Virus record (IMG/VR): IMGVR_UViG_3300045988_061742
Coordinates: 1-18,455 of that record
From: a virus
Length of the DNA: 18,455 nucleotides
Strand: one strand, 5' to 3'
Shown: positions 977 through 18,455 of the stretch, in pieces
Position numbering within the stretch: position 1 is the stretch's first letter
Layout of the letters: every line of letters begins with the position of its first letter
Notes under the pieces: model-generated
What the model was told of the DNA's origin: nothing
The model's input: only the letters and a program-made list of their open reading frames with translations
Databases searched by the model: none
Made by a program: the position numbers and the translations under genes

Positions 977-978
977 GC

Positions 979-1666: not shown

Positions 1667-1669
1667 AAA

Positions 1670-2046: not shown

Positions 2047-2484
2047 ATGGAAAACAACAACAATACCGCACTCGTCGCATTCAACACCGAAAACACCGAA
2101 CTCGGCACCGTCCAGCACTTTATCGACACTTCGACCCGTGAAGGCAAAATCAAGCTTTACAGCGCATTGCAGAACGCCGAAAAGCTTGACGAACACCTCA
2201 ACGAGCCGTTGAACATGACGAACGCAGTCGCGCAGGCAGTGCAGGTGACTGACGACCAGACGGGAGAAATCTCCAATACCGTGCGCGTCATTATCGTGAC
2301 CGACGACAACAAGGCGTACGCGGCCACCTCCCCGACTCTCGCCGCCGGACTTAACACCATGTTCGGCATCTTCGGCACGCCGAACACTTGGACGGAACCG
2401 CTGTGCATTAAAGTGGTGGAACGCCGCTCTCGCCGCGGGTTCAAGTTTTTCAGCATTGAGCCGGTGGATGAGGAAGCCAAGTGA
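2047..2484 (+). CDS. Putative ssDNA-binding / replication accessory protein (145 aa)
   Basis: Lies immediately upstream of the terminal-protein and polymerase genes, where phi29-type phages encode SSB/DBP. The layout (acidic N-terminal half, central beta-rich segment, C-terminal WTEP..IKVVERRSRRGFKFFSIEP) resembles, from memory, the phage SSB family typified by lactococcal phage SSBs. It has its own promoter-like box and a downstream hairpin. The coding call is strong; the function is tentative. Confidence 0.5.
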   Translation: MENNNNTALVAFNTENTELGTVQHFIDTSTREGKIKLYSALQNAEKLDEHLNEPLNMTNAVAQAVQVTDDQTGEISNTVRVIIVTDDNKAYAATSPTLAAGLNTMFGIFGTPNTWTEPLCIKVVERRSRRGFKFFSIEPVDEEAK

Positions 2485-2490
2485 GCGGCT

Positions 2491-2499
2491 TGCTATAAT
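2491..2499 (+). promoter_or_regulatory. Candidate extended -10 promoter TGcTATAAT upstream of the TP-polymerase genes
   Basis: Perfect TG-n-TATAAT box 7 nt after the SSB-like stop codon. No clear -35 box. Confidence 0.4.
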
Positions 2500-2521
2500 C
2501 GTTAGGTAGCGTTCGTTCATA

Positions 2522-2547
2522 GAGAGCACCCAGCCTTGGGTGCTCTC
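2522..2547 (+). terminator. Perfect 11-bp stem-loop (GAGAGCACCCA-gcct-TGGGTGCTCTC) with no U-tract; attenuator or 5'-UTR structure
   Basis: Inverted repeat 2522-2532 / 2537-2547 with a 4-nt loop, followed by GCCATCTT rather than a T-run. It lies between the SSB-like gene and the putative TP gene, downstream of the 2491 box. Confidence 0.35.
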
Positions 2548-2569
2548 GCCATCTTAAGGACTGTGCCAT

Positions 2570-3532: not shown

Positions 3533-3560
3533 CGGACGAGCAAGCAAGGGAAGTTATACC

Positions 3561-5015: not shown

Positions 5016-5016
5016 T
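5008..5016 (+). promoter_or_regulatory. Candidate extended -10 promoter TGtTATAAT overlapping the polymerase stop codon
   Basis: Perfect TG-n-TATAAT box. The predicted start is near 5023, and a strong terminator lies ~140 nt downstream with no credible ORF between. Confidence 0.4.
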
Positions 5017-5022
5017 GTCCAT

Positions 5023-5193
5023 GTCTTCTTGAGCATTGATTTTCGACTGGGAATGACATGGGTCGGATCGCCACGGCTGAGAATGCCGCCGGCTATGGAG
5101 TCGCTACTGTGGCGGTAGCGCCCTACGATTTTCGACTTGATGCTCACATAGGACATTTAGACCTCCGCGTGATTGCGGAGGTCATTTTATTTT
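5023..5193 (+). ncRNA. Candidate ~170-nt structured small RNA (possible pRNA-like packaging RNA); alternatively just the 3' UTR of the early operon
   Basis: A non-coding stretch in an otherwise compact genome, with its own promoter-like box and a terminator. Hand folding gives a 5'/3' closing helix (5021-5039 with 5137-5156), two internal hairpins and a 6-nt loop-bulge complementarity (CGCCAC 5069-5074 / GTGGCG 5109-5114). Details are in the findings. Confidence 0.35.
5160..5193 (+). terminator. Rho-independent terminator ending the early/replication module
   Basis: GACCTCCGC (5160-5168), loop GTGATT, GCGGAGGTC (5175-5183), then ATTTTATTTT. Confidence 0.85.
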
Positions 5194-5202
5194 CCCGTCG
5201 CA

Positions 5203-5211
5203 TGATATAAT
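5203..5211 (+). promoter_or_regulatory. Candidate late promoter, extended -10 TGaTATAAT
   Basis: Perfect TG-n-TATAAT box 10 nt after the terminator T-run and ~39 nt before the first late gene (SD TAAGGAG, ATG 5250). Confidence 0.5.
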
Positions 5212-5249
5212 TTTGAAGGAAAGATTCTACCAACGTAAGGAGAATTTGC

Positions 5250-5537
5250 ATGGCAGACCCAGACAATGACGGAGAGGAGACCACTACTCCGCCGCCGACC
5301 GAAGAGGAACGGCAGACGGAAACCGTGGATGATGAAGTCAGGCCGAAAGAACCGGAACCGGAACCGGAGCCGTCCGAACCGGACATAAGCGCGCGACTTG
5401 ACGGTATCGAAAAGGAATTGGCCGCACTCAAGGCCATGATGGACACGCTCGGTTACAACGACCTCGCACCGTCTGATAACGACAATGACGGCGACGGCGA
5501 TAATGATGGCGAGTCGATCGAAGATCTGTTTGACTAA
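5250..5537 (+). CDS. Putative scaffolding protein (95 aa, extremely acidic)
   Basis: It lies immediately upstream of the major capsid gene, and its size and position match phi29 gp7. It has a predicted helical core (ISARLDGIEKELAALKAMMDTL) flanked by D/E/P-rich tails, and its C-terminal ..SIEDLFD recalls the phi29 gp7 C-terminus ..IEDL... Confidence 0.55.
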   Translation: MADPDNDGEETTTPPPTEEERQTETVDDEVRPKEPEPEPEPSEPDISARLDGIEKELAALKAMMDTLGYNDLAPSDNDNDGDGDNDGESIEDLFD

Positions 5538-5553
5538 AAGAAAGGTATAGACA

Positions 5554-7269
5554 ATGTCCAATGTTCGACCACTTGCAGGTAAAGGTGACGTTGAGATCTT
5601 CAACGCCGTGCGTTCCGCCACCTCACCGCAGTTCCAAGTGCGCATCCCGTCAGCGACTCAAGGCAATATCCGCAACGCGGTGGACACCATGCGCAACTTC
5701 CCATACTTGCGCGACGAGTTCACGGGGGTACTTATCCAGCGTCTTATCGGTCTTTACATCCAACATGCGGACTGGGACGATCCGTTGAAGCTGATTGGCT
5801 CGCCGCGCACTCTCAAGCGCTACGGGTCGACTTACGAACAGGCCGCAGTTGGCCTCGTCAAGGCCCGCACCCGCAATTTCAACAAAGAGTATCTTGGCGA
5901 CGACGTGTATGGCCGCTACTCGCTGCCGACCGCTTCGGCGTTCCATCCCCTTACTTTCGACCATTATTACCCCGTCACTATCCCCGAAGACGCCTTGCTT
6001 ACCGCGTTCGACGGCGAAAGTGGCATGTCGGATTATATCAGCGAGATCATGAACGCACCTATCCTCTCGGATAGGAACGATATGTATTTGATGAAGACGC
6101 AGACTTTTGCGGAGTACGCGCGTAAGGGTGGCTTCTATCGCGTGCATACCCCCGATGTCGGTGCCGCGAACTCAACCGAGGCGGACGCCAAGGGGCTATT
6201 GCGCCTTATTCAGCAGGTGGCGAACGAACTCAAAGCGTCGCCAATGAGCGCCATGCCACGATATAATGCCATGAGTTGGGTGACTCCGTGGCGCGATTCC
6301 GAAGCCATCCTCTTCGCCACACCGCAGGTAATCGCCGCGCTCAACGTTGAAGCCCTCGCCGCCGCATTCAACATTGACAAGGTGAACGTGCCGTATCGTA
6401 TCATTCCGATTCCGGAAGACATGTTTGGCATCGGTGGTGCGGCTGGTAAGGTGCAGGCGGTTCTGACCACGGAAGACTTTTTCTTCTGCTGGGACGAAAT
6501 GCTGGAAACCACGACCAGCCCCGTTAACCCGATCGACGGAACCCGAAACATTTTCTACAAGCACCGCGGCTCCATCACTCCCAATCCATTTGCGAACGCC
6601 GTGCTGTTCTGGACAGGCGAAGGCTCCAACGAGTCCGTGACTCTGCCGGACACGCTCGCCACCTCGAAGCCGGAGTTCACCCTGCGCGTGCGCAAGTATG
6701 GACAGTCCGCCATCACCCCCGAAAATATTTCGCGTGGCGACTTGGTGCAGGTTGAGTCCGTCATTTCGAGCGAGAACAAGGCTGAGGCGTCGTTCCAGCC
6801 GGTTGGCATCGAATACAAGGTCGAGGGCGCCACATCGCAGTTCACGACCATCGATAACGGCGGTGTCCTTCGGTGTGGTTTGGATGAAACCGCCGAAGTG
6901 CTCAAGGTCACGGCTCAGGCAACCTACGTCGACCCAGCCCATCCCGAGATTGACCAGACGGTTTCCGCCGCACTGTCCGTGCCGGTGGTCGGCACTTGGC
7001 TCGGTGGCTGGAAGGTCGGCGCCATCGAGTCCATCGAGATTCGGGGCGAGAAAACCGTTAGTAAAGGCAGTCATATCGCACTTAAGGCGATTGCCACCAA
7101 GACGGACGGCAACACCGCAGACGTGACCAACCTCGCCATGTGGACTGTGGCCGCCAACGCAACCATCACTCCCGACGGCGTACTAACCGGAACCATAGTG
7201 GGCACCGCCAACGTTTCCGCGAAGTTCGCGGGAGCTGCTGGAACGGCAAGAGTCACCGTCATCGCCTGA
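5554..7269 (+). CDS. Major capsid protein, phi29 gp8-like, with C-terminal Ig-like (Big_2-type) domain(s)
   Basis: Several blocks align by eye with phi29 gp8: N-terminal FNAVRS...VRIPSAT; DALLTAFDGESGMSDYISEIMNAPILSDRNDMYLMK against ..LKTAF..[25 protein letters not shown]; and NP..G..N..YKH...I..NPFANAVLF against NPRGLYWNYYYH...SVSRFANAVAF. The last 84 aa (7015-7266: IEIRGEKTVSKGSHIALKAIATKTDGNTADVTNLAMWTV...VLTGT..GTANVSAKFAG..GTARVTV) form a typical Big_2 Ig-like domain. A second beta-rich segment precedes it. Confidence 0.9.
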   Translation: MSNVRPLAGKGDVEIFNAVRSATSPQFQVRIPSATQGNIRNAVDTMRNFPYLRDEFTGVLIQRLIGLYIQHADWDDPLKLIGSPRTLKRYGSTYEQAAVGLVKARTRNFNKEYLGDDVYGRYSLPTASAFHPLTFDHYYPVTIPEDALLTAFDGESGMSDYISEIMNAPILSDRNDMYLMKTQTFAEYARKGGFYRVHTPDVGAANSTEADAKGLLRLIQQVANELKASPMSAMPRYNAMSWVTPWRDSEAILFATPQVIAALNVEALAAAFNIDKVNVPYRIIPIPEDMFGIGGAAGKVQAVLTTEDFFFCWDEMLETTTSPVNPIDGTRNIFYKHRGSITPNPFANAVLFWTGEGSNESVTLPDTLATSKPEFTLRVRKYGQSAITPENISRGDLVQVESVISSENKAEASFQPVGIEYKVEGATSQFTTIDNGGVLRCGLDETAEVLKVTAQATYVDPAHPEIDQTVSAALSVPVVGTWLGGWKVGAIESIEIRGEKTVSKGSHIALKAIATKTDGNTADVTNLAMWTVAANATITPDGVLTGTIVGTANVSAKFAGAAGTARVTVIA

Positions 7270-7289
7270 CAATAGACGCCGGCTAGTAA

Positions 7290-7329
7290 AATAGGTGCGA
7301 GAAGACAATTCTCGCACCTATTGTTTTTT
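7290..7329 (+). terminator. Rho-independent terminator / attenuator directly after the capsid gene
   Basis: AATAGGTGCGAGAA (7290-7303), loop GACAA, TTCTCGCACCTATT (7309-7322), then GTTTTTT. The next gene's SD (AGGAGG) and ATG 7341 follow immediately, so some read-through is required. Confidence 0.8.
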
Positions 7330-7340
7330 AGGAGGACTTT

Positions 7341-9569
7341 ATGAGCGCAAACGATTTGCCAATCAATTTCAGTTACGCGAAATGGACACCAAACACACGG
7401 TTCAAGTTGTGTAACGTGCCTTGGGATATGGGTTACAGGGATATTGTCAAGTGGGACGAGATTGCTCAGAAAGAGTATTTCGAGCGTCTGGACGGTATCG
7501 AATTCTCCAATTGCACCATGGCGAAATACGGCCTTCCGGTACGACTGCCGGTGCCGTTCGCGCAAGCATGTCGGTATAATTATCTGATTGCGACGAACGA
7601 CTACGACTTCGACACCCCCCGTAGTTGGTATTATTTTATCCAGACGTGCGATTATATCAACGCCAACACCACACAGCTCAATATCCAGCTTGACGTGTGG
7701 CAGAGCTTCCAGCACGATATCCAATTGGACAACGCCTATGTGGAAAGGGGTCATGTCGGGATTGCGAACGAAAACGCTTGGAAAGACTGGGGCCGCACCT
7801 ATCTCGACCTACCGGAAGGCCTGGACACCGGCAAGGCAATGGTGGTCACCGGACAGCAGTATAAGACTTTGATCAGCGAAACGAACGGCTACACCACCTT
7901 CGGCGTGATCGTAGTATCCACCACAAAATTGGACACCAACCCCGGCACGGCAGACGCACCGAAAATCACGTGCGCGGACGGCAGCGCTTTCGAAAACCAT
8001 GCGAACGGCACCGCATTATACTATTTTTCGGACGCTCTGGATTTTCTCGCAGTGATGGGGGCGGGCGCGGAATACCCGTGGGTGACACAGGGTATTTGCG
8101 GCATCTACGCCATCCCCCAACTTCCGGAAGCCCTTTTAGAAAAGCAGCAGAAGCCGGGCGTGTTCTTCAATCATATGATTGACTGGCGTGGCGACTGCTA
8201 CCGCCTGAAGGTACGCCATAATGATGCTAAAAGCCGCTACGCCGACATCATCCATATCAAGGACTTCCGCGACAATTTCAAACTCCCCGAACGCTACAAG
8301 TATCTCAAAAAATTCCGCACCGCGCCATACGCCATATTGGAATGCTCGTGCCTCAACGGTACCGTGATCACTTACAATCCCGAGCAGATTCCAAGCGCTG
8401 ACCTGACTATCCGCGAGTCATGGGACTACGCGCCACCGTCTCCGCGACTCAACTTTTATCCGCTCGGATATAACGCCGGAGATGTCAGCGAACAATCCCC
8501 GTTGCCGAACGATTCCGGTTTGCCGATTGATTCCGGTGAAATGCTTGACGCCAGTTTCGGCATCACCGATTTCCCAACCTTCATGACGGTCAACAACGGC
8601 AGCGCCCTCGCCCTCGCCAATTCCGCGTACACGCGCCAATACGCGCAGCAGAGCGCGGATTGGAGTTTTCAGAAAACCCAAATGGGCATCAACAACGCCT
8701 ACTCTCAGGCACAATTAGGCGCGCAGTACGCGAGTGCCCAGAATCGACTTGGCACGTCCAACCGTAATGCCATGAACGCCATCAGCAATCAAAGCGCTCA
8801 GATGGGCGCCGATCTGACGTTGAAAAACCTCGGTTTCAATAACCAAATGTCACAGCTGAACACGATTGGCAGCGGTATGGCGAACGCGGTTGGCTCCGCC
8901 GTAACGGGTAATGTCGGCGGTGTGGCCGGTGCCATCGCAGGCACGGCCATCGGCGCATGGACCAATCAAATGACCTACGATAATAATGTGAGCACGGCTA
9001 ATCAGCAGCTTGCGAACACGCAGACGACCAACAACGCGTCGACTTCACAGGCCAACGCCTACAGCCTTGCGCAAACCAACTTGTCCAACCAACAGACAAT
9101 GCAACTCGCGGATATGAACAGGCAACTTGCACAAGCCACGGCCCAAGGGGACTACGAGAACACCATTGCGGGCATCAACGCGCAGGTGCAACAGACTCAA
9201 ACGATACCCCCTACAACGTCCGGCGCGTTGGGCGGTGACGCGTTCAATCTTGCCAACGGGCTAATTGGCGTGATGGTGCGCTTCCGGCAGATACCACCAG
9301 CCGCCATGCGCTCCATTGGCGAAGTATGGCTAAGATACGGCTATTACGTGCAACGGTTCATGAAGCTGCCGGAAGATCTCATGGCAATGTCCAATTTCAC
9401 GTACTGGAAAGTGCATGAGCTGTACGTGCGTTCGAGCACGTGCCCGGAAGAGTATCGATTGACTGTGAAAGGCATTTTCGAGAGTGGCGTAACCGTCTGG
9501 ACCGACCCCAACAAAATCGGCGTCACGGATTATGCGGACAATACGCCACTATCAGGTATCGCATACTAG
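7341..9569 (+). CDS. Tail knob protein, phi29 gp9-like (742 aa)
   Basis: The N-terminal domain aligns by eye with phi29 gp9: NVPWDMGYRDIVKW / DVPFSNDYKNTRWF; YNYLIATN......RSWYYFIQTCDYINANTTQLNIQLDVWQSF / [45 protein letters not shown]. Its position between the capsid and portal genes matches phi29 synteny. Confidence 0.85.
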   Translation: MSANDLPINFSYAKWTPNTRFKLCNVPWDMGYRDIVKWDEIAQKEYFERLDGIEFSNCTMAKYGLPVRLPVPFAQACRYNYLIATNDYDFDTPRSWYYFIQTCDYINANTTQLNIQLDVWQSFQHDIQLDNAYVERGHVGIANENAWKDWGRTYLDLPEGLDTGKAMVVTGQQYKTLISETNGYTTFGVIVVSTTKLDTNPGTADAPKITCADGSAFENHANGTALYYFSDALDFLAVMGAGAEYPWVTQGICGIYAIPQLPEALLEKQQKPGVFFNHMIDWRGDCYRLKVRHNDAKSRYADIIHIKDFRDNFKLPERYKYLKKFRTAPYAILECSCLNGTVITYNPEQIPSADLTIRESWDYAPPSPRLNFYPLGYNAGDVSEQSPLPNDSGLPIDSGEMLDASFGITDFPTFMTVNNGSALALANSAYTRQYAQQSADWSFQKTQMGINNAYSQAQLGAQYASAQNRLGTSNRNAMNAISNQSAQMGADLTLKNLGFNNQMSQLNTIGSGMANAVGSAVTGNVGGVAGAIAGTAIGAWTNQMTYDNNVSTANQQLANTQTTNNASTSQANAYSLAQTNLSNQQTMQLADMNRQLAQATAQGDYENTIAGINAQVQQTQTIPPTTSGALGGDAFNLANGLIGVMVRFRQIPPAAMRSIGEVWLRYGYYVQRFMKLPEDLMAMSNFTYWKVHELYVRSSTCPEEYRLTVKGIFESGVTVWTDPNKIGVTDYADNTPLSGIAY

Positions 9570-9574
9570 ATATA

Positions 9575-9603
9575 ATGGAGAGAGCGTAATAAACTCTCTC
9601 CAT
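9575..9603 (+). terminator. 10-bp stem-loop after the tail-knob gene (ATGGAGAGAG / CTCTCTCCAT); weak terminator or RNA-stability element
   Basis: Perfect inverted repeat 9575-9584 / 9594-9603 with a 9-nt loop, followed by CATTTGTAT (poor U-tract). A TATAAT without the TG extension lies at 9571-9576. Confidence 0.4.
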
Positions 9604-9626
9604 CATTTGTATCAAGGACGGTGACA

Positions 9627-10565
9627 ATGGGTAAACGCAATAACGCGAAAAAGGCCGCGCACTGGGATAATCAGAGCGTTTTAGGCTCGATGTGGGGCAA
9701 TCTTAACCTACCTGAAATGCGGCAGTCATTACGAATCAACCAATACATGAAGCTGATTGAAATGTTGGCGGTGAGCCGGTTCAAGTGGATAAATTTGCCC
9801 CCGTACATTGACGAGCGCTATTTGGAACTGACGCTATTCGAGAATGGTTTGGCGCTCTTTTTCCCCGATAAACGCAAGGGCGTCCATCGTTTTATGGTCA
9901 CGTCGGGTAATATCGGCGGTGTCAACAACTATAATAATCCGACATCATTCCAGCCGGTTGCCGCGAATTACTCACACCCGCAAATCGGAAGCAAGGAGTG
10001 CGTGCCGATTTGGGACAACCAACTGCGTTGCACCATGATTGATGTCATGTGGAATTATGCCACGCGGCTCGCCATCGCCGACCGCGCACTGGATGTCAAC
10101 CTCGACAATATCAGCGTGCCGCTGATCATCGCCACGTCTGAAACCAACAAACTCACCGCCGAAAACCTCATGAAGGCACGCGAGGACGGAGACCCATATA
10201 TCTACATGTATGACACCGCGGATATCACGGGCATGTTCCAAACCTTCCCCAACATGACGCCGTTTTTGGCGGATAAGATCATCACCACCAAAACTCAGGT
10301 GTGGAACGAACTCGTCAACTACCTCGGCATCGACAACAGCACGACGGAAAAGAAGGAACGACTACTCGAATCGGAAGTGACGGCGGGAAACAGTCGTACG
10401 AACGTGTTCCGCCTGAGCTACCTGAAAGCACGTCAACAGGCTTGCGACACGATTAACCGGTTGTGGCCGCAAATGGCCGACTCGGGGCATCCTGTCGGCA
10501 TCGAATGGAACGACACCACCAGCGGCGGCCTGCTGGACGTCGACGGAAACAAGGAGGAAGAATAA
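9627..10565 (+). CDS. Portal / upper collar (connector) protein, phi29 gp10-like
   Basis: Clear by-eye similarity to phi29 gp10: FKWINLPPYIDERYLELTLFENG against [23 protein letters not shown], and QVWNELVNYLGIDNSTTEKKERLLESEV against [28 protein letters not shown]. ATG 9627 lies 8 nt after AAGGA. The ORF track starts at GTG 9621, which is an alternative. Confidence 0.92.
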   Translation: MGKRNNAKKAAHWDNQSVLGSMWGNLNLPEMRQSLRINQYMKLIEMLAVSRFKWINLPPYIDERYLELTLFENGLALFFPDKRKGVHRFMVTSGNIGGVNNYNNPTSFQPVAANYSHPQIGSKECVPIWDNQLRCTMIDVMWNYATRLAIADRALDVNLDNISVPLIIATSETNKLTAENLMKAREDGDPYIYMYDTADITGMFQTFPNMTPFLADKIITTKTQVWNELVNYLGIDNSTTEKKERLLESEVTAGNSRTNVFRLSYLKARQQACDTINRLWPQMADSGHPVGIEWNDTTSGGLLDVDGNKEEE

Positions 10566-10567
10566 AT

Positions 10568-11380
10568 ATGGTGCAGGACTTGAGCATGTATGCGGTCAAG
10601 GATGGTATGGCCGACTACACCTTGACTCTTGGCAATCTGATCGCACGCGGTTTCGACACGGACGAAAAACTCCATTTAAGCTCGCAATATTATCCGATTT
10701 TCGACGAAAAATACAGGGCGAAACTTAACGAGAAAATCGTAGCACACTACGCGTTGCGTGAGATTGGTTCGGAAACGCCGCAAATGTTCGTTTTCTATCT
10801 CGGGCGTACCATGCGCGAACAAATGGACTATTTCAACCAACTCTATTTATCCGCGCAACATAAGTTCGACCCGTTCATCACTTCCGATATTCGGCAGGAA
10901 ATGGACTCGACCAGCACGAACGAGTCCAGTGGCAAGTCTTCCGGCACGCAATCGAACGAGTCCACGGCGAATAGCACGTCCGACACCACCGCCGACAATT
11001 CCAGCATGACTTTTAACAGCGAGTTCCCGCAAACACGTATCGATGACTTCCGAAAGTACGCCACCACCGCGTCACAGACGGACTCGACCGGCAACACGCA
11101 CACGAGCACACAGCAGGACAGCACCGCCACCGCGTCCAGTACCAGCAACACCGATTTTTCGCACTCGTCCGATAAGGGAAACAGCGTGTCGCATACGCTC
11201 GGCACCAGCGGTTCACAATCACAGCTCTTGCAGGATTGGCGTAACACCATGCTCAATATTGACATGATGGTCGTCAACTCGCTTGAAAACCTCTTTTTAG
11301 GCATGTGGGGCAGTGGCGACAATATGACCAACGTGCCGCAATTGCATTCCACGTCACTCGCCTACAACCTCGGCCACTAG
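10568..11380 (+). CDS. Lower collar protein, phi29 gp11-like (270 aa)
   Basis: ATG 10568 lies 7 nt after AAGGAGGAAG and 2 nt after the portal stop; the track ORF start at 10463 is only an upstream in-frame extension overlapping the portal gene. The N-terminus (YYPIFDEKYRAKLNEKIVAHYALREIGSETPQMFVFYLGRTMREQMDYFNQLY) is typical of picovirus lower-collar proteins. The long S/T-rich central region fits the tube-forming loops. The position matches phi29 synteny. Confidence 0.8.
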   Translation: MVQDLSMYAVKDGMADYTLTLGNLIARGFDTDEKLHLSSQYYPIFDEKYRAKLNEKIVAHYALREIGSETPQMFVFYLGRTMREQMDYFNQLYLSAQHKFDPFITSDIRQEMDSTSTNESSGKSSGTQSNESTANSTSDTTADNSSMTFNSEFPQTRIDDFRKYATTASQTDSTGNTHTSTQQDSTATASSTSNTDFSHSSDKGNSVSHTLGTSGSQSQLLQDWRNTMLNIDMMVVNSLENLFLGMWGSGDNMTNVPQLHSTSLAYNLGH

Positions 11381-11411
11381 AGTATACTTGACATTGACAG
11401 ATTGGAGGATT

Positions 11412-12011
11412 ATGGACGGACTCGACATGTGCGCCGCGCCGTTGGCCATTGACTCACGGCAGCGGTATTTCACGACGGTTCAGCCGTTCTCGTACCGCGA
11501 CACGTTAACCGTGCTCGGATACGTGCAGGAGGTGGCCGAACATGTGGACGAATTGCGCGAACAGCTCGACAATCTCGCCGAAGACGAGAACGCGGACATC
11601 GAAGCCATCAAACAGCTGGTGGCCGGTTTTGACGAGCAGTTCGAGCGCATCAACAAAACCTTGGATGATTTGGAGAAACAAGTCGGACAGTACGAAGACT
11701 CCGACCTTACCTATAACCCGACACGCGGCAAGTATGAGGACTCCAAAAACACGAATCGCGATATGTACCGTGAGCTTGCGGTGTTCGGCGCACGCGTCAA
11801 CCAAATGGCCCAGCTATCCGTGCCAATGGCCGCCGCGCACACGTGCCTTGAGTTCGCCGTGCTCGGCAACAAAACCATTTTCCATAATGACGAGCCACGT
11901 ATCACGCCACGTGACGTACACGTGGATGACGGCGAATCCGTCAATCCGCTGTCGGTGGAGAATCTCGCCAATGGCGTCGTGGTCAACAATTTCATGAAAA
12001 CAGCTCAGTAA
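11412..12011 (+). CDS. Structural protein with central coiled coil, function unknown (199 aa; start uncertain, the track gives TTG 11388)
   Basis: It lies in the tail gene block. It has a heptad-like acidic helical segment (VQEVAEHVDELREQLDNLAEDENADIEAIKQLVAGFDEQFERINKTLDDLEKQV). GGAGG (11404-11408) is only 3 nt before ATG 11412. Confidence 0.6.
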   Translation: MDGLDMCAAPLAIDSRQRYFTTVQPFSYRDTLTVLGYVQEVAEHVDELREQLDNLAEDENADIEAIKQLVAGFDEQFERINKTLDDLEKQVGQYEDSDLTYNPTRGKYEDSKNTNRDMYRELAVFGARVNQMAQLSVPMAAAHTCLEFAVLGNKTIFHNDEPRITPRDVHVDDGESVNPLSVENLANGVVVNNFMKTAQ

Positions 12012-12026
12012 TATAAGGAGAGACAA

Positions 12027-12380
12027 ATGGTACAGAAGACACCGAACTACAATCTTGAAAAATACAGCTCAACCGACGCGCCGAATCTCGAAGGCTCGTA
12101 CAACCGTTCGATGGATATTCTCGACACGACGTTAAAAACGCAGTCGGATAGGATTGACGCAATCCCGACACCAGAAAGCCTTCCCGAGGGTTTGACGGCG
12201 TTCGCCACCGCTCTCGGACTGGGCAACTCCAACGCCAACGCGCTCGGCACCGCGCTTAACCATCTCCTCAACCGTGTTCCAGCAACAGGCGGCGGCCAGT
12301 ATACCGTCAAAAACCTCAACGACACCAAAGTCACCGCCGAAGGGCTTCCGTTCGTTTCCACCACCGCTTCGGGAGATTGA
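12027..12380 (+). CDS. Short tail-fibre-like protein carrying the shared N-terminal module (117 aa)
   Basis: AAGGAG SD upstream. Its N-terminus (TPNYNLEKYSSTDAPNLEGSYNRSMDILDTTL) is paralogous to the N-termini of the next two genes. Confidence 0.7.
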   Translation: MVQKTPNYNLEKYSSTDAPNLEGSYNRSMDILDTTLKTQSDRIDAIPTPESLPEGLTAFATALGLGNSNANALGTALNHLLNRVPATGGGQYTVKNLNDTKVTAEGLPFVSTTASGD

Positions 12381-12571
12381 TGGTTATGACAGACAGTCAG
12401 CAGCAGACCACGCCCGTGGACTCCGCCGCATACGATGTGACGCGACATTATGGACTGCCGCTTTACAGTGACGCGGCACCAATGGACATGCGCGACGGAT
12501 ACAATCGCGCCATGCGCATGATCGACCAGATTCTGAATCAACTGCAAACCCAGGTTCGAGAGAAGGACTAA
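12380..12571 (+). CDS. Mini-protein consisting almost only of the shared N-terminal fibre module (63 aa; alternative starts at 12377 and 12386)
   Basis: ATG 12380 overlaps the previous stop (TGATG), with GGGAG upstream. The sequence HYGLPLYSDAAPMDMRDGYNRAMRMIDQIL aligns with the fibre N-terminus NYGLNLYGDNDPADLRDGYNGSMRAIDTTL. Confidence 0.6.
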   Translation: MVMTDSQQQTTPVDSAAYDVTRHYGLPLYSDAAPMDMRDGYNRAMRMIDQILNQLQTQVREKD

Positions 12572-12577
12572 ACACAA

Positions 12578-14533
12578 ATGGCTACCGTATACACAAAGAC
12601 GGATAATTACGGATTGAACCTTTACGGCGACAACGACCCTGCCGACTTGCGCGACGGCTACAACGGCAGCATGCGCGCCATCGACACCACGCTTGAAAAG
12701 CATCTCAACCGCATCGAAGCCGTGGAGTCGCGTGAAACGCATGATGAAGAAGTGGTCAAAGCGCTGATTGGTGATAACACGGTTGACAGCGCCACCGCAT
12801 CGAAGACCAAGTGGGATAAATCGATCACAGACGCCGCCGCCGCAACCGCCGCGGCCACAGCCGCAACCGCCGCGGCCACGGCCGCAGCAGGTAAAGCGGA
12901 CAACAACACGGCGATCCTCGCCGCGTTGGGATCCGACACTACGGCAAACGCCACCGCCAATAAAACCAAATGGGATAAAGCGGGAGCGGACGCAGCGACA
13001 GCCATAGGCAAGGCCGACAACAATAAAACAATTCTCACCGCACTTGGAGCAGGCTCAATCGTTGACGCCACGGCGCAAAAAACCAAACTGGACAACACCG
13101 CCGCCAAGGTGGACGAGTTTGCGAACACACGTGTCGACAGCAAGCTTGACTCACACCTCATCATTCACGCGCACCGTGGTTCCTACCGTTTCCCCGAAAA
13201 CACGATGGAAGGCATCATGTGGGCGGTACGTCACGGATACGTGCCCGAAATCGACGTGCAACTCACGTCGGACGGTGTTCCCGTGATCCTGCACGACACC
13301 TCAACCGCGCGAACCATGACAGGCACTGCGGCAAACGTGTCTTCCATCACCTACAGTGATTTTATGAGTCGCGAAGTCAAGGCGAAAGTACATGGCGGAA
13401 ACACCGGCAAGCCGGTAAGCATGGAGCAGGTGCTCCAAGCGGTGGGCGATAGTCCGGTTGACTTTGAAATCAAGTCGCTGAACAACGCCACCACCGACGC
13501 CATGCTGGAATTACTGCGCAAGTATGGCGCAACCTCAATCCACGAATTGACGTCGTTCAGCTGGGAACAGTGCGTCCGTGCCGTGCGGGGCGGCGCGAAA
13601 TACGTGTCGTACACGTGGGATGTGGACACCATGCCGCACTCTTGGACCGACATGAAAAATGCGGGCATTTTCTGCGGCAATCCGCGTGAAGACAAATTGA
13701 CGTCGACAATGGTCAGCGCCGCGCATACGGCGGGGGTCAAGATCAACCCGTGGCTGATTAACGACCCAGTAGCCTACGAGCGTGTCACCAAGCTCGGAGT
13801 GGATGGCATCACGTCCAATTGGCCGGATTATGCGACAAAACAGATGTGCCGCAACTTCACGCCATTCAGCACCGGCGAAAACACTTTTATCCGTCCAACG
13901 CGGTTCCAGGTATACGGCCAGCAAGGGTATGTCGACGTCTCGGAAGCCGACAGAGCCAAGAGCACGTATCTCGCGCCGGACGGGCTGTTCCAGCTTGGTG
14001 ACGCCGATGGGCAGATGGCTGTTGAACTTGTTGAAGTCGGACAGGTGACTTTACCGACGTCAATCGACCTCGAAGGCTTCATGTCCAGAGTACAGACCGG
14101 TGCGGCCGGGGAAACGCGCAATATCGCAGTCGTGGCCGTCAAGGAAAGCACGGATATAGAGCCGTGGGAGGATAACAAGAAGGCTGGACAGGTTGGAATT
14201 ATCGCAGGTGTGCGCCGTAATGGCGCCACCTTCGGCGGATTCTATCAAAACAATAAAGACACTGTGCCTTTTGACTCGACCGATACCAAGACGCCCGTTG
14301 TCGGCAATGACGATAGTGTCGCAGTGCATGCGTCATTTGTCCTTGACAGAGACCATGCACGCATCATTTGGGCTTACAGCAATGGGCAGAATGGCGACGT
14401 AATCACCGGAAACAATAAAAGCGTCATACTGCCGGACGAAAAGTACCGGCTCTACCTGCGTGTCAACCGCAATTTCAAGAGCGCATGGAAAATAAGGGTA
14501 CGTCCCACTGACGGTTATCTCTACGAGAGCTGA
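12578..14533 (+). CDS. Tail appendage / receptor-binding protein with a glycerophosphodiester phosphodiesterase (GDPD) domain (651 aa)
   Basis: aa 1-50: shared anchor module. aa ~66-178: Ala/Thr-rich repeats (..TKWDK....GKADNN.AIL.ALG.. repeated). aa ~193-417 (13154-13828): canonical GDPD motifs HAHRG..FPENT......G...EIDVQLTSDGVPVILHD ... FEIK ... INPWLIND ... GVDGITSNWPD. aa 420-651: beta-rich C-terminal domain of unknown fold. Confidence 0.88.
   Translation: MATVYTKTDNYGLNLYGDNDPADLRDGYNGSMRAIDTTLEKHLNRIEAVESRETHDEEVVKALIGDNTVDSATASKTKWDKSITDAAAATAAATAATAAATAAAGKADNNTAILAALGSDTTANATANKTKWDKAGADAATAIGKADNNKTILTALGAGSIVDATAQKTKLDNTAAKVDEFANTRVDSKLDSHLIIHAHRGSYRFPENTMEGIMWAVRHGYVPEIDVQLTSDGVPVILHDTSTARTMTGTAANVSSITYSDFMSREVKAKVHGGNTGKPVSMEQVLQAVGDSPVDFEIKSLNNATTDAMLELLRKYGATSIHELTSFSWEQCVRAVRGGAKYVSYTWDVDTMPHSWTDMKNAGIFCGNPREDKLTSTMVSAAHTAGVKINPWLINDPVAYERVTKLGVDGITSNWPDYATKQMCRNFTPFSTGENTFIRPTRFQVYGQQGYVDVSEADRAKSTYLAPDGLFQLGDADGQMAVELVEVGQVTLPTSIDLEGFMSRVQTGAAGETRNIAVVAVKESTDIEPWEDNKKAGQVGIIAGVRRNGATFGGFYQNNKDTVPFDSTDTKTPVVGNDDSVAVHASFVLDRDHARIIWAYSNGQNGDVITGNNKSVILPDEKYRLYLRVNRNFKSAWKIRVRPTDGYLYES
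12839..12886 (+). repeat. In-frame 21-nt tandem repeat (GCCGCAACCGCCGCGGCCAC[A/G], ~2.3 copies) encoding (AATAAAT)n in the fibre stalk
   Basis: Unit 1 is 12839-12859 and unit 2 is 12860-12880, differing at one wobble base. A partial third copy covers 12881-12886. Confidence 0.85.
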
Positions 14534-14551
14534 CAGACCATCCTAAGTCCA

Positions 14552-14593
14552 AGTAATAGCCATATCCTCTATAATAAGGATATGGCTATTACT
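14552..14593 (+). promoter_or_regulatory. Perfect 16-bp hairpin that sequesters the SD and start codon of the tail-lysin gene, with TATAAT in the loop
   Basis: AGTAATAGCCATATCC (14552-14567) is the exact reverse complement of GGATATGGCTATTACT (14578-14593). The right arm contains GGA of the SD, ATG 14582 and codons 2-4. The 10-nt loop TCTATAATAA contains TATAAT (14570-14575), 7 nt upstream of the A of the ATG. Confidence 0.6.
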
Positions 14594-15805
14594 TTTGACG
14601 AGTGGATAAAACAAACACAGGGCCGCTACTGGGATATGGACGGGGCGTATGGTGCTCAATGTTGGGATTTGTGGGCCAAATATTGCATGGACCTATACGG
14701 TGCGTCAGTGAGCGACTGCATCACGCCAACCGGCTATGCGGAAGGCAACTACACTCGGTTCCCAACCAATTCAAAAATGGCTGCGGTTTTCGAGAAGAAG
14801 CCCGCTGACTATTCTCCCGTCAAAGGTGACGTGGCGTTTTGGAATTTCTCAAGCCAACACACCGGATCCCACGTGAGCATTGTCATGGAGGACGGCGTAC
14901 ATAACGGACGCATCACCGTCCTATCGCAAAACCCTAATCCCGCGCAGCGCATGAGTTTCGACTTGACGGCGTTTCTGGGGTATCTGCACCCGAAAGCACT
15001 AGGCGAAGGAGGTGGCACGACTTCGACGGAAAAGAATCCGACAGGAGACAATAGTCACGGTTCCGCCGACTCCGCACGTGGTGGCGCGTGGATACATTGG
15101 CAAGGCGGCAACCTCTACTTACATGAAAGCGACAACGCCGGAACACGAACTCGCATATTCTATAAGACAACCGCCAACAATTTTTCCGAAAAGGCGTCAC
15201 AATCCCAACCGTCCAGCGATAACGGACAAGCGCATCCCTCCACCTCGATATCGCCGGAAAACTCTTACGCCCTATATGTGGTGGGCACGGTTGAGGCCGG
15301 TCTACGCTGGGATGCGGTAGAAGCAGCCAATTTGCAGGGCATTGGCATCGCGCAATGGAGTTTCGAGCGCCGACTCCAAGTGCTCAACGCCATGAAGGCC
15401 GCCGACCCAGCCGGATACACGACATTCAAAGCGTCCGCGCCTGAAATCGCGTCTCTTATGGAGTCGGGCGGCACGTTCAAACGTTCGCTCACTTCGGCGG
15501 AAGCGGCCGCGTTCCGCACATGGGCGGGGCGGAGTGAGTCGCGTGACGGCCAACGTAAACAGTTTGCGGAGGATTATGCAGGCTATCCGAAGCAGTACGA
15601 TGATGTAAAAATGCAGATTCTTTGGATAACGGCGTATCACCAATCGCCCGCCAACGCGCTCAAAGTGCCGAAAGCATCGAACCTCGCACAGCTTAAAAAC
15701 AATATTCTGTCAACGTTTCCATTCGGGCCGTACACGACGCGATACAACCAAGCGTATTCTTTGCTTTCGGTGTGGGATGGCAAGTCTAATCCACCCGCAT
15801 TCTAA
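14582..15805 (+). CDS. Virion-associated peptidoglycan hydrolase (phi29 gp13 analogue): N-terminal CHAP peptidase plus C-terminal lysozyme-like domain (407 aa)
   Basis: CHAP motifs: GAQCWDLW (Cys27) and GSHVSIV (His97). A Gly/Ser/Thr linker spans aa 140-165. The C-terminal part (aa ~228-400), GTVEAGLRWDAVEAANLQGIGIAQWSFERRLQVL, resembles the phage tail lysozyme type (E...G.GI.QW..R...L). It sits after the fibre gene, as gp13 does in phi29. Confidence 0.75.
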   Translation: MAITFDEWIKQTQGRYWDMDGAYGAQCWDLWAKYCMDLYGASVSDCITPTGYAEGNYTRFPTNSKMAAVFEKKPADYSPVKGDVAFWNFSSQHTGSHVSIVMEDGVHNGRITVLSQNPNPAQRMSFDLTAFLGYLHPKALGEGGGTTSTEKNPTGDNSHGSADSARGGAWIHWQGGNLYLHESDNAGTRTRIFYKTTANNFSEKASQSQPSSDNGQAHPSTSISPENSYALYVVGTVEAGLRWDAVEAANLQGIGIAQWSFERRLQVLNAMKAADPAGYTTFKASAPEIASLMESGGTFKRSLTSAEAAAFRTWAGRSESRDGQRKQFAEDYAGYPKQYDDVKMQILWITAYHQSPANALKVPKASNLAQLKNNILSTFPFGPYTTRYNQAYSLLSVWDGKSNPPAF

Positions 15806-15810
15806 AAGTG

Positions 15811-15819
15811 TGGTATACT
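15811..15819 (+). promoter_or_regulatory. Candidate extended -10 promoter TGgTATACT
   Basis: A TG-n-TATACT box lies 6 nt after the tail-lysin stop codon. The predicted start is near 15826, upstream of terminator 15880-15924. Confidence 0.35.
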
Positions 15820-15879
15820 TAATAGTGGCAGTGGTTGTATGATGACCTTTCCCCCTTGAACGGCTGCCATATGATAGGT

Positions 15880-15924
15880 TAGTGGAGGGCGTGCGAGTCA
15901 TGGCGCACGCCCTCCACTAGTTTT
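15880..15924 (+). terminator. Rho-independent terminator (16-bp stem) between the tail lysin and the packaging ATPase
   Basis: TAGTGGAGGGCGTGCG (15880-15895), loop AGTCATGG, CGCACGCCCTCCACTA (15904-15919), then G+TTTT (15920-15924). The ATPase SD (AGGAGG) follows directly. Confidence 0.8.
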
Positions 15925-15939
15925 AGGAGGGTTGCAAAC

Positions 15940-17007
15940 ATGACATTGCAAACGCTTGACGAGGGCGATTATTACAATTTGCACAATCTGTTGACGCGAA
16001 ACGCCCCGTGGAATTTTGTAATAGGCGCGCGTGGCCTAGGTAAGACGTTCGCCGCGAAACGATACGGCATCAAAGAGTACATCAAGCACGACCGCGAGTT
16101 CATTTATTTGCGCCGTACGGACGTGGAACAGCACAGGAAAGAGACGTTTTTCAAGGATATTCAGGAATTTTTCCCGTCCTACGAATTTCGTGTCAACGGT
16201 GAAAAGGGGCAGATTCATAAGACTTCCTGGGATGAGAAGGATTGGCGGACATGCTGCTATTTTGTGGCCCTCTCTCAGGCTGGCGGACTCAAGTCAGTCG
16301 CCTACCCGAAAGTGCATTTGATTATTTTCGACGAGATTTTCCCCGATAACCTGCGTTTTTTAAGTAATGAGGTAAACTCGTTTTCCGAATTTTACAATAC
16401 GGTGGACAGGTGGCAGGATAGAACAAAAGTTCTATTCCTATCGAACGCCGTTCAAAAGGCCAATCCATATTTCGCCAAATACCGGTTGGACATTGGCGCA
16501 CAGCAAGCCAACCAACAACAATACAAACTCTATTGCGGCGGGTTTATCTGTCTCGAACTAGCAGACTATGGTGGTTTCTCGGCAAAAGTCGCCAAATCAA
16601 GGTTCGGCAAATTCTTGGAGCAATACGATGGCGATTATGCCGACTATGCGATACGTAACAAGTTCCGTGACGAGTCGGACACATTACTGGCGCCTATACC
16701 GTCAAACGGCGAGCTGTCTTACATTTTGGACACTACGGATTACGCGCGGTTTGGGGTGTGGGTTTCCGTGTCCGAACGCGATGGACGTGTTTCACAATAT
16801 GTTTCACGGCGTATTCCAAAAGACAACAATCGCCCCGTCTATACGCTTGACCCGAACCATGTTGACGAAAGAACGTGGTATGTCAAAAAGTCGGATGATG
16901 TTATACGACGGCTCACCACCGGCTACAGACTTGGTAAAATACGATTCGATGATTCCCAAGTCAAAGCGGATTTCGGTCTGATTATCGGAGAACTGCTAGG
17001 CAAATAG
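15940..17007 (+). CDS. DNA encapsidation (packaging) ATPase, phi29 gp16-like
   Basis: WNFVIGARGLGKTFAAKRY aligns with phi29 gp16 LNFVIGARGIGKSYAMKVY (Walker A, aa 29-36). Walker B is HLIIFDE (aa 125-132). LSNAVQKANPYF aligns with LSNAVSVVNPYF, and the C-terminal G.IRFD matches GYLRFD. Confidence 0.95.
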   Translation: MTLQTLDEGDYYNLHNLLTRNAPWNFVIGARGLGKTFAAKRYGIKEYIKHDREFIYLRRTDVEQHRKETFFKDIQEFFPSYEFRVNGEKGQIHKTSWDEKDWRTCCYFVALSQAGGLKSVAYPKVHLIIFDEIFPDNLRFLSNEVNSFSEFYNTVDRWQDRTKVLFLSNAVQKANPYFAKYRLDIGAQQANQQQYKLYCGGFICLELADYGGFSAKVAKSRFGKFLEQYDGDYADYAIRNKFRDESDTLLAPIPSNGELSYILDTTDYARFGVWVSVSERDGRVSQYVSRRIPKDNNRPVYTLDPNHVDERTWYVKKSDDVIRRLTTGYRLGKIRFDDSQVKADFGLIIGELLGK

Positions 17008-17022
17008 AAAGGAACAATAACA

Positions 17023-17385
17023 ATGACAACAGCGGACGTATGGTGTGCCATCGCAGTAACGTTCTTCATCACCACCGATTACGTCACAGGCGTGGCGAAA
17101 GCCATCATGCAGGATAATCTAAGTTCCAAAAAAATGCGTGAGGGACTAGGCCACAAGTTCGCCTACGTCATCCTCACGTTAACGGCATGGTTCATCGACG
17201 AAGTCAACCTACACATTGACTTGGGACTGCCGGTGTCCGTATTCGTTTGTACGGTCAGCGGAATCTGCCTAATCGAACTTACATCGATTCTGGAAAACGT
17301 CACAGCGATCAATCCGGAATTAGCGAACGCACCATTCATGTCGATATTTTCCCAAAACACGCCTAACGCGAAGCACGGCAAATGA
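17023..17385 (+). CDS. Holin (phage_holin_4 / TcdE-like family, 120 aa)
   Basis: Three hydrophobic segments plus family-typical motifs: DYVTGVAKAI....LSSKKMREGLGHKFAYVIL ... ELTSILENV. It lies directly upstream of the endolysin. Confidence 0.85.
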   Translation: MTTADVWCAIAVTFFITTDYVTGVAKAIMQDNLSSKKMREGLGHKFAYVILTLTAWFIDEVNLHIDLGLPVSVFVCTVSGICLIELTSILENVTAINPELANAPFMSIFSQNTPNAKHGK

Positions 17386-17558
17386 ACCCTATCATCTCAT
17401 ATTGGATATTGAGCGGGCTTACGGCGATTGGAATTGCGATGTGGTTCGCATCCTTCGCCGTCCAATATCCACAGTTCCACCGTGCCGCATTCATCTTCAT
17501 GCTTATCACGACAACGCCGTGGGTGACGGCAACATTATATCTGACACAAACAATGTAA
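17382..17558 (+). CDS. Untracked 58-aa two-TM membrane protein in the lysis cassette (MNPIISYWILSGLTAIGIAMWFASFAVQYPQFHRAAFIFMLITTTPWVTATLYLTQTM)
   Basis: Found by manual translation. Its ATG overlaps the holin stop (ATGA at 17382-17385), it ends 10 nt before the endolysin ATG, and it has two clear hydrophobic helices. It fills an otherwise unexplained 183-nt gap. Confidence 0.6.
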   Translation: MNPIISYWILSGLTAIGIAMWFASFAVQYPQFHRAAFIFMLITTTPWVTATLYLTQTM

Positions 17559-17568
17559 GGAGCGAAAA

Positions 17569-18234
17569 ATGAATATCCAAGAGTGGATTAACTCAGTCAA
17601 CGGCAAAACCATCGACATGGACGGAGCCTACGGCGGACAATGCTGGGACTTGTGGAGCAGCTACGCGCACAACGTATACGGCATTCCAGCCGCCGACACC
17701 AACACCGTAGACGGATATGCCGCAAGCGTGTACACCGCACGTTACGGACGTTCCAGCGCGTTGCAAAAGGCTTTCACCAAAGAGTCAGCCAGCTACACGC
17801 CAACCTACGGAGACGTGGCATTCTGGAAACGCAAGGGCATGAACCACGTCGCCATCGTGATCAAAGACAACGGCAACGGCACACTCACAACCATGTCACA
17901 AAACCCCAACAAAGCCGGATACCTTAATATCAGCAAAAACGGCATCATAGGCTACTTCCACCCTCGAAACAACAACAGTGGCAACGGTAACGCCAATGCC
18001 GTCGCAATCATCGCGCGCACCTATCGCGTCAACGTGCCAGTGCTCAACGTGCGCTCAGCACCAAGCACTAACAGCTGTATTGTGGCGCAATACCATAAAG
18101 GACAGACAGTCAACCTCATGAGCGGCACCACCGTCGCAGACGGGTACATTTGGGCACACTACGTAGGCGGGTCAGGCAAGACACGATACGTCGCGCTAAA
18201 AGCCGTAGAAGGTACGACACAATACCTCGTATGA
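17569..18234 (+). CDS. Endolysin: N-terminal CHAP peptidase plus C-terminal SH3b cell-wall-binding domain (221 aa)
   Basis: CHAP motifs are GGQCWDLW (Cys25) and NHVAIV (His). An Asn/Gly linker (NNNSGNGNANA) follows. The SH3b-like C-terminus reads YRVNVPVLNVRSAPSTNSCIVAQYHKGQTVNL....DGYIWAHY..GSGKTRYVA. AAGGAG SD upstream; the gene follows the holin. Confidence 0.9.
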   Translation: MNIQEWINSVNGKTIDMDGAYGGQCWDLWSSYAHNVYGIPAADTNTVDGYAASVYTARYGRSSALQKAFTKESASYTPTYGDVAFWKRKGMNHVAIVIKDNGNGTLTTMSQNPNKAGYLNISKNGIIGYFHPRNNNSGNGNANAVAIIARTYRVNVPVLNVRSAPSTNSCIVAQYHKGQTVNLMSGTTVADGYIWAHYVGGSGKTRYVALKAVEGTTQYLV

Positions 18235-18242
18235 CATAAGGG

Positions 18243-18280
18243 AAGCCCCTAGACTGTTGGCCTAGGGGCTTTTACTTTTA
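18243..18280 (+). terminator. Rho-independent terminator at the end of the late operon
   Basis: AAGCCCCTAG (18243-18252), loop ACTGTTGGC, CTAGGGGCTT (18262-18271), then TTACTTTTAT. Confidence 0.85.
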
Positions 18281-18336
18281 TATGTTAGTCGCCATCATCA
18301 TTCTCCCCTCCGATTGTCCTTCTCAAACTCGGTAAC

Positions 18337-18455
18337 ATGTGCGGTAAAGTTAGCATTTTATTTTTCCTTCCCCTTGAATCGGATAACTACAATATAACAC
18401 AAACAAAACGGCGACACGCCCGAAAACAAAACAAAACAAAATACTGAAACACAAC
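18337..18455. repeat. Right inverted terminal repeat (ITR), 119 bp
   Basis: Exact reverse complement of 1-119; begins at ATGTGCGGT (18337) and runs to the last base of the window. Confidence 0.97.

Follow-up and report, generated by a model that had tools for sequence, protein, structure and literature searches.

How is a gene expressed when its start codon lies within a perfect stem, and what is the stem for? The question is raised by the tail-lysin gene of IMG/VR virus record IMGVR_UViG_3300045988_061742 (positions 1 to 18,455, the whole stretch analysed, called the window below). A hairpin takes in the start codon of this gene, and the loop of the hairpin holds the hexamer TATAAT. Hairpin, nested promoter and start codon together form an element of 44 nt. 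We propose that this element serves a phi29-like Bifidobacterium phage as a compact junction where two transcription units meet. RNA arriving through the upstream fibre gene would carry a masked lysin start, and a second, leaderless RNA started from the loop would carry an open one. The parts of the element and the gene it serves are as follows.

14551-14568, plus strand: 5′ arm of the hairpin, AAGTAATAGCCATATCCT, one half of an 18-nt perfect inverted repeat; covaries with the 3′ arm in 60 relatives
14569-14576, plus strand: loop of 8 nt, CTATAATA; 6-9 nt in relatives
14570-14575, plus strand: predicted -10 hexamer TATAAT, in the loop; T1, A2, A4 and T6 invariant in 60 distinct relatives
14576-14581, plus strand: spacer or discriminator AAGGAT, 6 nt, mostly in the inner 3′ arm; free in sequence, always pairs with the 5′ arm
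14577-14594, plus strand: 3′ arm of the hairpin, AGGATATGGCTATTACTT, spanning the ATG, codons 2-4 and the first base of codon 5
14582-14584, plus strand: lysin start codon ATG, the first start of the open reading frame; A14582 is the predicted transcription start site
14585-14596, plus strand: codons 2-5, GCT ATT ACT TTT, forming the U-rich tract UAUUACUUUU on the 3′ side of the G+C-rich stem core
14582-15805, plus strand: tail-lysin gene, 407 amino acids, with CHAP (Pfam PF05257) and phage tail lysozyme (Pfam PF18013) domains

A preliminary description of this stretch gave a perfect hairpin of 16 bp with a loop of 10 nt. The hairpin is real and perfect, and its length had been understated: one more base pair closes at each end, giving two arms of 18 nt that are 100% complementary around a loop of 8 nt. 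The same description placed the ATG and the first codons in the 3′ arm, and this holds, with 14577-14594 reaching from the ATG to the first base of codon 5. The 18-bp stem is the longest perfect hairpin of the genome; the longest in 100 dinucleotide-preserving shuffles was 7-11 bp. RNA of positions 14520-14640 folds with -39.2 kcal/mol (z = -4.9), and none of 200 shuffles was as stable. The hairpin itself has an energy of -26.8 kcal/mol in the window and a median of -24.8 kcal/mol in relatives (n = 70). A scan of the whole window against Rfam 15 gave no covariance-model match at the gathering threshold.

When IMG/VR was searched with the lysin protein, 80 loci came up, 60-96% identical at the protein level, and 60 distinct sequences were aligned. 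The hairpin is kept in nearly all of the 80 loci. It is also present in Bifidobacterium phage BP1, the closest isolated relative by lysin protein (70% identity to BP1 gp5; host Bifidobacterium pseudocatenulatum), which was reached only by the protein-level search; megablast of 12500-16000 against GenBank phages found no match. Whether related phages keep the hairpin with compensatory changes had been asked in the preliminary description, and the 60 distinct relatives do. With the 18-pair structure laid over the alignment, 88.4% of the cells are paired compared with 80.1% in shuffles. Compensatory cells number 94 against 27.5 expected, with nine of the 18 pairs changed on both sides; none of 500 shuffles reaches this, and these statistics are not probabilities, because the loci, which come largely from one very large metagenome project, are related by descent. 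When the partner is slid by 1-3 columns as a control, pairing falls to 25-50%. RNAalifold independently returned a 13-bp core with compensatory (double) changes at 8 pairs. The five or six pairs between the -10 hexamer and the ATG occur as 35 haplotypes (ATCCT/AGGAT, GCCAC/GTGGC, ACCG/CGGT, ACTC/GAGT, AACG/CGTT and GTGAC/GTCAC are examples), essentially free in sequence and always complementary. Changes in codon 2 (GCT to GCC, ACT or GCA) are matched by changes in the 5′ arm, and in all 60 sequences of this clade (clade 1) the stem takes in the AUG and codon 2, with compensation. Despite the kinship of the sequences, the number of independent stem haplotypes and the slid controls are strong arguments that the covariation is real. 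From this comparison we are highly confident that selection maintains the RNA hairpin.

A perfect palindrome centred on a -10 hexamer might act in DNA rather than in RNA, as an operator for a dimeric phage or host regulator or as a cruciform flanking the -10. The outer octamers, ATAGCCAT and ATGGCTAT, are highly conserved, as such an element would have it; the conservation of the 3′ octamer, however, is explained by coding and pairing. The separation of the octamers varies from 16 to 19 nt, and the inner arms covary freely, all 35 haplotypes being complementary. The core pairs comprise 739 Watson-Crick, 47 G.U and 6 A.C combinations. A protein-bound palindrome in DNA or a cruciform would lack such an asymmetry, which, together with the variable distance between the octamers, indicates that the selected object is a plus-strand RNA hairpin and not a DNA operator. 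Operator and cruciform were rejected on these grounds, and we give a DNA-level element next to no probability. A single-stranded DNA hairpin on the strand displaced in protein-primed replication was also rejected: the plus strand is the coding strand and cannot template sense mRNA, and on the minus strand the G.T pairs become A.C mismatches.

A duplex of this kind in RNA could be a processing site. As an RNase III-type processing or stability element, the hairpin would separate the fibre and lysin mRNAs by cleavage or 3′-end protection, and a cut in the stem would free the lysin start. RNase III acts on double-stranded RNA of about two helical turns, and T7 uses such intergenic sites; in the window, the 18-bp perfect duplex can be extended by 3 further pairs. 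The conserved core in relatives is only 13-14 bp, however, which is short for RNase III, and the outer pairs are kept in 37-72% of the sequences. Processing also leaves the conservation and spacing of the -10 hexamer unexplained, and we consider it very improbable.

In its pattern of conservation the loop hexamer resembles a -10 element. Besides TATAAT, only TACAAT, TATACT and TAAAAT occur in the 60 sequences. The spacer from the hexamer to the ATG is 6 nt in 51 of the 60, 7 nt in eight and 8 nt in one. All relatives have C or T at position -1 and A at +1, or G where the start codon is GTG. Such a pyrimidine-purine start signature has been described as universal, and leaderless transcripts account for 15% of the mapped transcription start sites in Bifidobacterium pseudolongum compared with 0.4% in Escherichia coli (PMC4782308). 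The host of the phage is almost certainly a Bifidobacterium, an actinobacterium, because the nearest lysin relatives belong to BP1 and, more distantly, to other Bifidobacterium podophages and Actinomyces phage Av-1. TATAAT occurs eight times on the plus strand of the window, and five of these copies touch the 9% that is intergenic; all four minus-strand copies are inside genes. The binomial probability of at least four of eight copies falling in 9.4% of the sequence is about 0.004 by our own arithmetic. The conserved hexamer, its 6-8 nt spacing and the pyrimidine at -1 support in silico the earlier suggestion that TATAAT is placed for a leaderless mRNA. That the loop hexamer acts as a promoter whose mRNA is leaderless or nearly so, we regard as quite probable.

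The start codon itself is correctly placed. In an alignment with the paralogous endolysin, whose first residue falls opposite residue 3 of the lysin, the two proteins are 42% identical over 137 amino acids (E = 4e-36), and the N-terminus is therefore genuine, as the preliminary description had concluded from the same paralogue. Other starts were considered and rejected: there is no in-frame ATG, GTG or TTG between the upstream stop and 14582, and initiation at the next ATG (14637) would delete residues conserved with the endolysin. A Shine-Dalgarno (SD)-like motif is found 4-12 nt upstream of 15 of the other 20 genes scanned, and the full range of distances for such motifs at other genes is 3-12 nt. 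At the lysin gene, AAGGA ends 1 nt before the ATG, and the earlier judgement that this is too close stands. Among the relatives no SD is conserved at a usable distance before the lysin ATG; the spacer resembles an SD in some (GGTGG, AAGGA) and not in others (TACGTT, TGCGGT, CAGTCAC), and is always too near the ATG. Translational coupling to the fibre gene was rejected, with the fibre stop lying 17 nt 5′ of the hairpin and 48 nt 5′ of the lysin ATG (32-48 nt in relatives).

The two predicted RNAs differ in the accessibility of the start. Opening of positions -3 to +13 costs 23.4 kcal/mol in the window when the RNA spans -80 to +80, compared with 1.5 kcal/mol when it begins at the AUG; the medians for 70 relatives are 20.2 kcal/mol for read-through and 1.6 kcal/mol for leaderless RNA. 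Over its first 99 nt, the leaderless RNA folds no more stably than shuffled sequence (z = +0.7). These calculations agree with the preliminary description on both counts, the start being occluded by the 18-bp stem in read-through RNA and unstructured in the leaderless form. As the 5′ arm lies upstream of any start from the loop promoter, the hairpin is possible only in transcripts that come from upstream, and selection on an RNA hairpin so placed implies that read-through RNA is made. With no usable SD and an opening cost of about 20 kcal/mol, the read-through RNA is, by this modelling, probably silent for the lysin.

A stem of this stability over an AUG might act with no promoter at all, as a translational attenuator that keeps a virion enzyme scarce, with initiation through breathing of the stem and the A/U-rich loop serving as a standby or S1-binding site. 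Tail-tip lysins are indeed low-copy proteins, as established for phi29 gp13, and the lack of a -35 and of a TGn extension at the loop hexamer would fit. Yet an opening cost of about 20 kcal/mol would allow essentially no initiation, and the lysin is a conserved virion component. The attenuator also leaves without explanation the -10-type conservation of the loop, the fixed distance of 6 nt, the pyrimidine at -1 and the recurrence of this geometry in the sister clade described below. We consider it quite improbable.

A second scan, seeded with the most divergent lysin, gave a sister clade of 54 distinct sequences (L084-L148; for example L086, positions 1430-1510), in which the lysins begin with MVDVQAW or MPTLDEW. 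The layout here is different. A G+C-rich hairpin of 13 bp, ATACCCCGYCCGG...CCGGRCGGGGTAT, covaries (59 G.U compared with 13 A.C) and ends in the first three bases of TATACT, which is followed by an A/T-rich spacer of 6 nt (AATATC) and the ATG. TATACT is found in 50 of the 54 sequences and the 6-nt spacer in 52, and all have a pyrimidine at -1. Their spacers contain nothing that resembles an SD, which leaves a leaderless mRNA as the only plausible route to a conserved virion protein. No U-tract accompanies the hairpin (ACUAAUAUC).

The hairpin may act on transcription as well as on translation. A weak terminator had been offered in the preliminary description as the alternative to masking, and the evidence on it is divided. 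Codons 2-5 of the lysin (GCT, ATT, ACT and TTT) are kept in 53, 54, 54 and 45 of the 60 relatives, and all four are minority codons in the genome (8%, 32%, 12% and 30% of use). These U-ending codons could equally serve the open, A/U-rich 5′ end of a leaderless mRNA. The tail reads AUUACUUUU when counted from the G+C-rich core and UUGACGAG, with UUG only, when counted from the full stem. A consensus terminator scan (at least 5 U in 8 nt) did not flag the lysin-start hairpin. In a d'Aubenton-Carafa-style score, the T-tail term is 1.0-1.75 at the lysin hairpin compared with 2.0-2.8 at the canonical terminators of the phage; in the full score even the canonical terminators were negative, and only this relative ranking of the T-tails was used.

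A clear terminator joined to a -10 hexamer is found elsewhere in the genome. At the knob-connector junction (window 9570-9626, and 80 further loci, L160-L239, at about 320-400), an invariant TATAAT(GG) follows the stop codon. After it come a hairpin, (AT)GGAGAGAG-loop-CTCTCTCC(AT), then ATTATTTTTT in most relatives (CATTTGTAT in the window), the SD AGGA and the ATG. The TATAAT thus lies at the 5′ foot of a canonical terminator hairpin. A transcript from this -10 would begin inside the 5′ arm and escape the terminator, the same design logic as is proposed for the lysin junction.

The knob-connector site, with its stem and AUUAUUUUUU in most relatives, lends weight to an account in which the promoter and the leaderless start are as we propose, and the hairpin was selected as a terminator or insulator of the fibre unit, burial of the AUG being incidental to the packing of all parts into 44 nt. 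The rare U-ending codons that put UAUUACUUUU directly after the G+C-rich core fit such an account, and so does the sister clade, where a covarying hairpin is kept off the AUG. All perfect hairpins of at least 10 bp in the genome (2522, 7290, 9575, 14551, 15880 and 18243) are intergenic, and several of them are canonical terminators. The lone UUG after the full stem, a tail too poor in U for the terminator scan and the lower T-tail score speak against a terminator, as does the absence of any U-tract in the sister clade. A terminator would not, moreover, require that the clade 1 stem always include the AUG and a compensated codon 2. On balance we think it rather unlikely that the hairpin was selected for termination with masking as a by-product. 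The two activities may coexist, since both follow from one structure, and they are inseparable in silico. That the hairpin also terminates a useful fraction of upstream transcription has, in our estimate, slightly less than an even chance.

The junction that we favour would work in the following way. RNA from upstream promoters runs through the fibre gene and folds, as the comparative analysis shows, into a stable hairpin that pairs the AUG and the next three to four codons; by its thermodynamics, this RNA would be silent for the lysin. The G+C-rich core followed by UAUUACUUUU may stop part of the upstream transcription, as an attenuator or insulator. A host sigma-A-type -10 in the loop would direct RNA polymerase to start at, or 1-2 nt from, A14582, as the conservation of hexamer and spacing suggests. 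The resulting transcript would be leaderless and unstructured, containing only the 3′ arm, and would be translated by the leaderless pathway, which is common in Actinobacteria. The net effect would be to make lysin output independent of the heavy fibre-gene transcription and to set it by a -10-only promoter of its own. We consider this junction model, taken as a whole, somewhat more probable than its negation.

Why the lysin should be held back is a separate matter. The preliminary description appealed to the danger of the hydrolase; this rationale is weak and unsupported, because the lysin, which lacks an export signal, would do no harm in the cytoplasm until the holin acts. T4 masks its cytoplasmic lysozyme all the same. 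Dosage and insulation seem the more likely reason, with many copies of the fibre and few of the tail-tip lysin in each virion.

Several observations weigh against the junction model. The loop promoter has neither a -35 nor a TGn extension, and it may therefore be weak or need an activator or a phage factor. The promoter and all statements about transcription are inferred from sequence. The sister-clade hairpin stops 9 nt short of the AUG and is thus unable to bury the start, so masking of the start codon is not the function common to both clades. An AUG without an SD may be poorly used in a long mRNA anyway, and masking would then be partly redundant. The result of the terminator scan and the intermediate T-tail score count against the termination part of the model.

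The closest known system is the hairpin control of T4 genes e, soc, 49 and I-TevI, in which early or middle transcripts hide the initiation region in a hairpin and embedded late promoters free it; segB and Aeh1 mobE are controlled in the same manner, and the control of gene e makes a difference of about 100-fold to lysozyme synthesis (PMC3014915, PMC2988022). By analogy, the lysin element would work alike and be a distinct variant. In both, upstream transcripts fold a hairpin over the initiation region, and transcripts of the inner promoter lack the 5′ arm (predicted here). T4 e, too, encodes a peptidoglycan hydrolase and sits behind other genes in a polycistronic context. The T4 late promoter (TATAAATA, recognised by gp55), however, lies in the 5′ strand, whereas the -10 of the lysin element lies in the loop and is presumably read by host sigma-A. 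The late mRNA of T4 keeps a leader with an SD; the predicted lysin transcript starts at the A of the AUG and has no functional SD. Unlike T4, the phage is a phi29-like podovirus of an actinobacterium, and its hairpin may also terminate. The T4 inhibitory hairpin with its embedded late promoter was reportedly described by McPheeters et al. in 1986.

Two further classes share parts of the design. Leaderless genes of actinobacteria have a -10 (TANNNT) 6-7 nt before an ATG or GTG, no SD, and a 5′-terminal AUG that is used directly; those of mycobacteria are said to have been treated by Shell et al. in 2015. Lambda cI, expressed from PRM, likewise has two transcripts of which one is leaderless. Neither the known leaderless genes nor lambda cI are described with a hairpin around promoter and start, and in the lysin element the leaderless form is predicted to be the sole translatable one. 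The element resembles rho-independent terminators in its G+C-rich core, in the pairing of the U-rich 3′ side, AUUACUUUU, with an A-rich 5′ side, AAGUAAU, and in its position 17 nt past a stop codon; terminators of this type stand at 5160, 7290 and 18243 in the same phage. The element differs from them in that the U-tract is interrupted and lies inside coding sequence, the -10 is in the loop and the start codon is in the stem. A full-text search of the published literature found no described case of a hairpin-wrapped promoter with a leaderless start.

It is conceivable, and we put it forward tentatively, that the element is a self-insulating cassette of terminator, promoter and leaderless start, in which one hairpin of about 44 nt stops or silences incoming RNA, houses the -10 and sets the transcription start site on the AUG. 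With the same reserve, the cassette logic might be recognised in three layouts, with the -10 in the loop (clade 1), at the 3′ foot (clade 2) and at the 5′ foot (knob-connector). If this is true, the cassette would be a general way to build transcription-unit boundaries in very small genomes. Confirmation of the lysin junction would show T4-type hairpin-promoter control in a phage family unrelated to T4 and in a Gram-positive host phylum of high G+C, combined there with leaderless translation and all nested in 44 nt. The locus offers a natural test of whether a 5′-terminal AUG is translated while the same AUG in a longer RNA is silent, and it bears on -10-only promoters in Bifidobacterium and on the insulation of neighbouring units in tiny phage genomes. 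The element marks the true start and the expression signal of the tail lysin in gut Bifidobacterium phages and might provide a compact insulating part for expression in bifidobacteria. As the isolated phage BP1 (PQ571273, with the lysin ATG at position 4292 of the record on the minus strand; host strain B. pseudocatenulatum U19) carries the module, the predictions are directly testable.

The 18,455 bp of the window make up a complete, linear, phi29-like phage genome with a G+C content of 52.7% and all genes on the plus strand; its inverted terminal repeats confirm a full-length linear genome of the protein-primed type. Pfam matches include a phi29-type major capsid protein, connector, tail-knob gp9, gp16 packaging ATPase and protein-primed type-B polymerase. 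On the 3′ side of the tail lysin follow the ATPase, a holin and a CHAP-SH3 endolysin. The genes from 9627 to 14533 are contiguous on one strand, with no terminator-like hairpin between them, and the hairpin and consensus terminator scans found no hairpin or terminator-like site from the fibre stop to 14551. The remaining features are listed here.

1-135 and 18321-18455: inverted terminal repeats of 135 bp, 95% complementary
12578-14533, plus strand: fibre or appendage gene upstream of the lysin, 651 amino acids, with a GDPD domain (Pfam PF03009)
2491-2499: likely promoter with a TGn-extended -10, TTGCTATAAT
about 5202-5211: likely promoter with a TGn-extended -10, ATGATATAAT
15811-15819: likely promoter with a TGn-extended -10, TGGTATACT (15809 TGTGGTATACT)

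The site at 2494 is followed by an 11-bp hairpin (2522-2547) with no U-tract, just before the gene at 2570.

Upstream of the module, the fibre gene is highly mosaic: among the relatives its C-terminus is of at least 10 unrelated types (…YLYES, …SFATHMG, …SYAA, …FSMSCFH, …FTVAW, …IPAGM and …IKTIAAQ are among them), with a distance of 32-48 nt from the stop to the lysin ATG. The BP1 counterpart is annotated as a pectate-lyase-domain protein, and the copy in the window has the GDPD domain. The boundary of exchange lies just 5′ of the conserved hairpin. Since the module is constant while the fibre gene is mosaic, the module belongs to the lysin gene; incidentally, it may serve as a conserved junction for fibre-gene exchange.

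Two Bifidobacterium podophages, BadAztec1 and BD811P1, are without the module; the N-terminal part of their tail lysins is of another kind, and translation begins at an overlapping start or behind an SD. In BD811P1, a terminator-like hairpin, GGAACCCCCT...AGGGGGTTCC, is located upstream of the tail-lysin GTG (3035-3060). It is followed by a second, small hairpin, CCTCC-ATTATAA-GGAGG, in which the SD itself would be paired.

The spacer between the lysin and the gp16 ATPase (window 15806-15930; BP1 4216-4345; BD811P1 4318-4447; L001-L083) is strongly conserved and resembles a small RNA gene of about 90-105 nt. The lysin stop is immediately followed by an extended -10 promoter, which reads GTGTGGTATACT in the window and TGTGATATAAT in relatives. 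A permissive Rfam scan of 15780-15960 gave only chance microRNA-like hits, and RNAalifold on a MAFFT alignment across the divergent clades, which was poor, gave no consensus structure. The RNA may be an analogue of the packaging RNA (pRNA); pRNA is known only from Bacillus phi29-like phages (2024 review, PMC11476376). Single-sequence folds of the spacer agree with one another. Two hairpins follow the promoter, the first GGCAGTGG.../GTCGGC... and the second a perfect stem of 16 bp (15880-15919). Their stems differ between the clades and stay complementary, and the loop motifs CCTTTCCC..TTGA and TCATG are conserved. Downstream of the second hairpin stands TTTT, with the SD of gp16 immediately after it.

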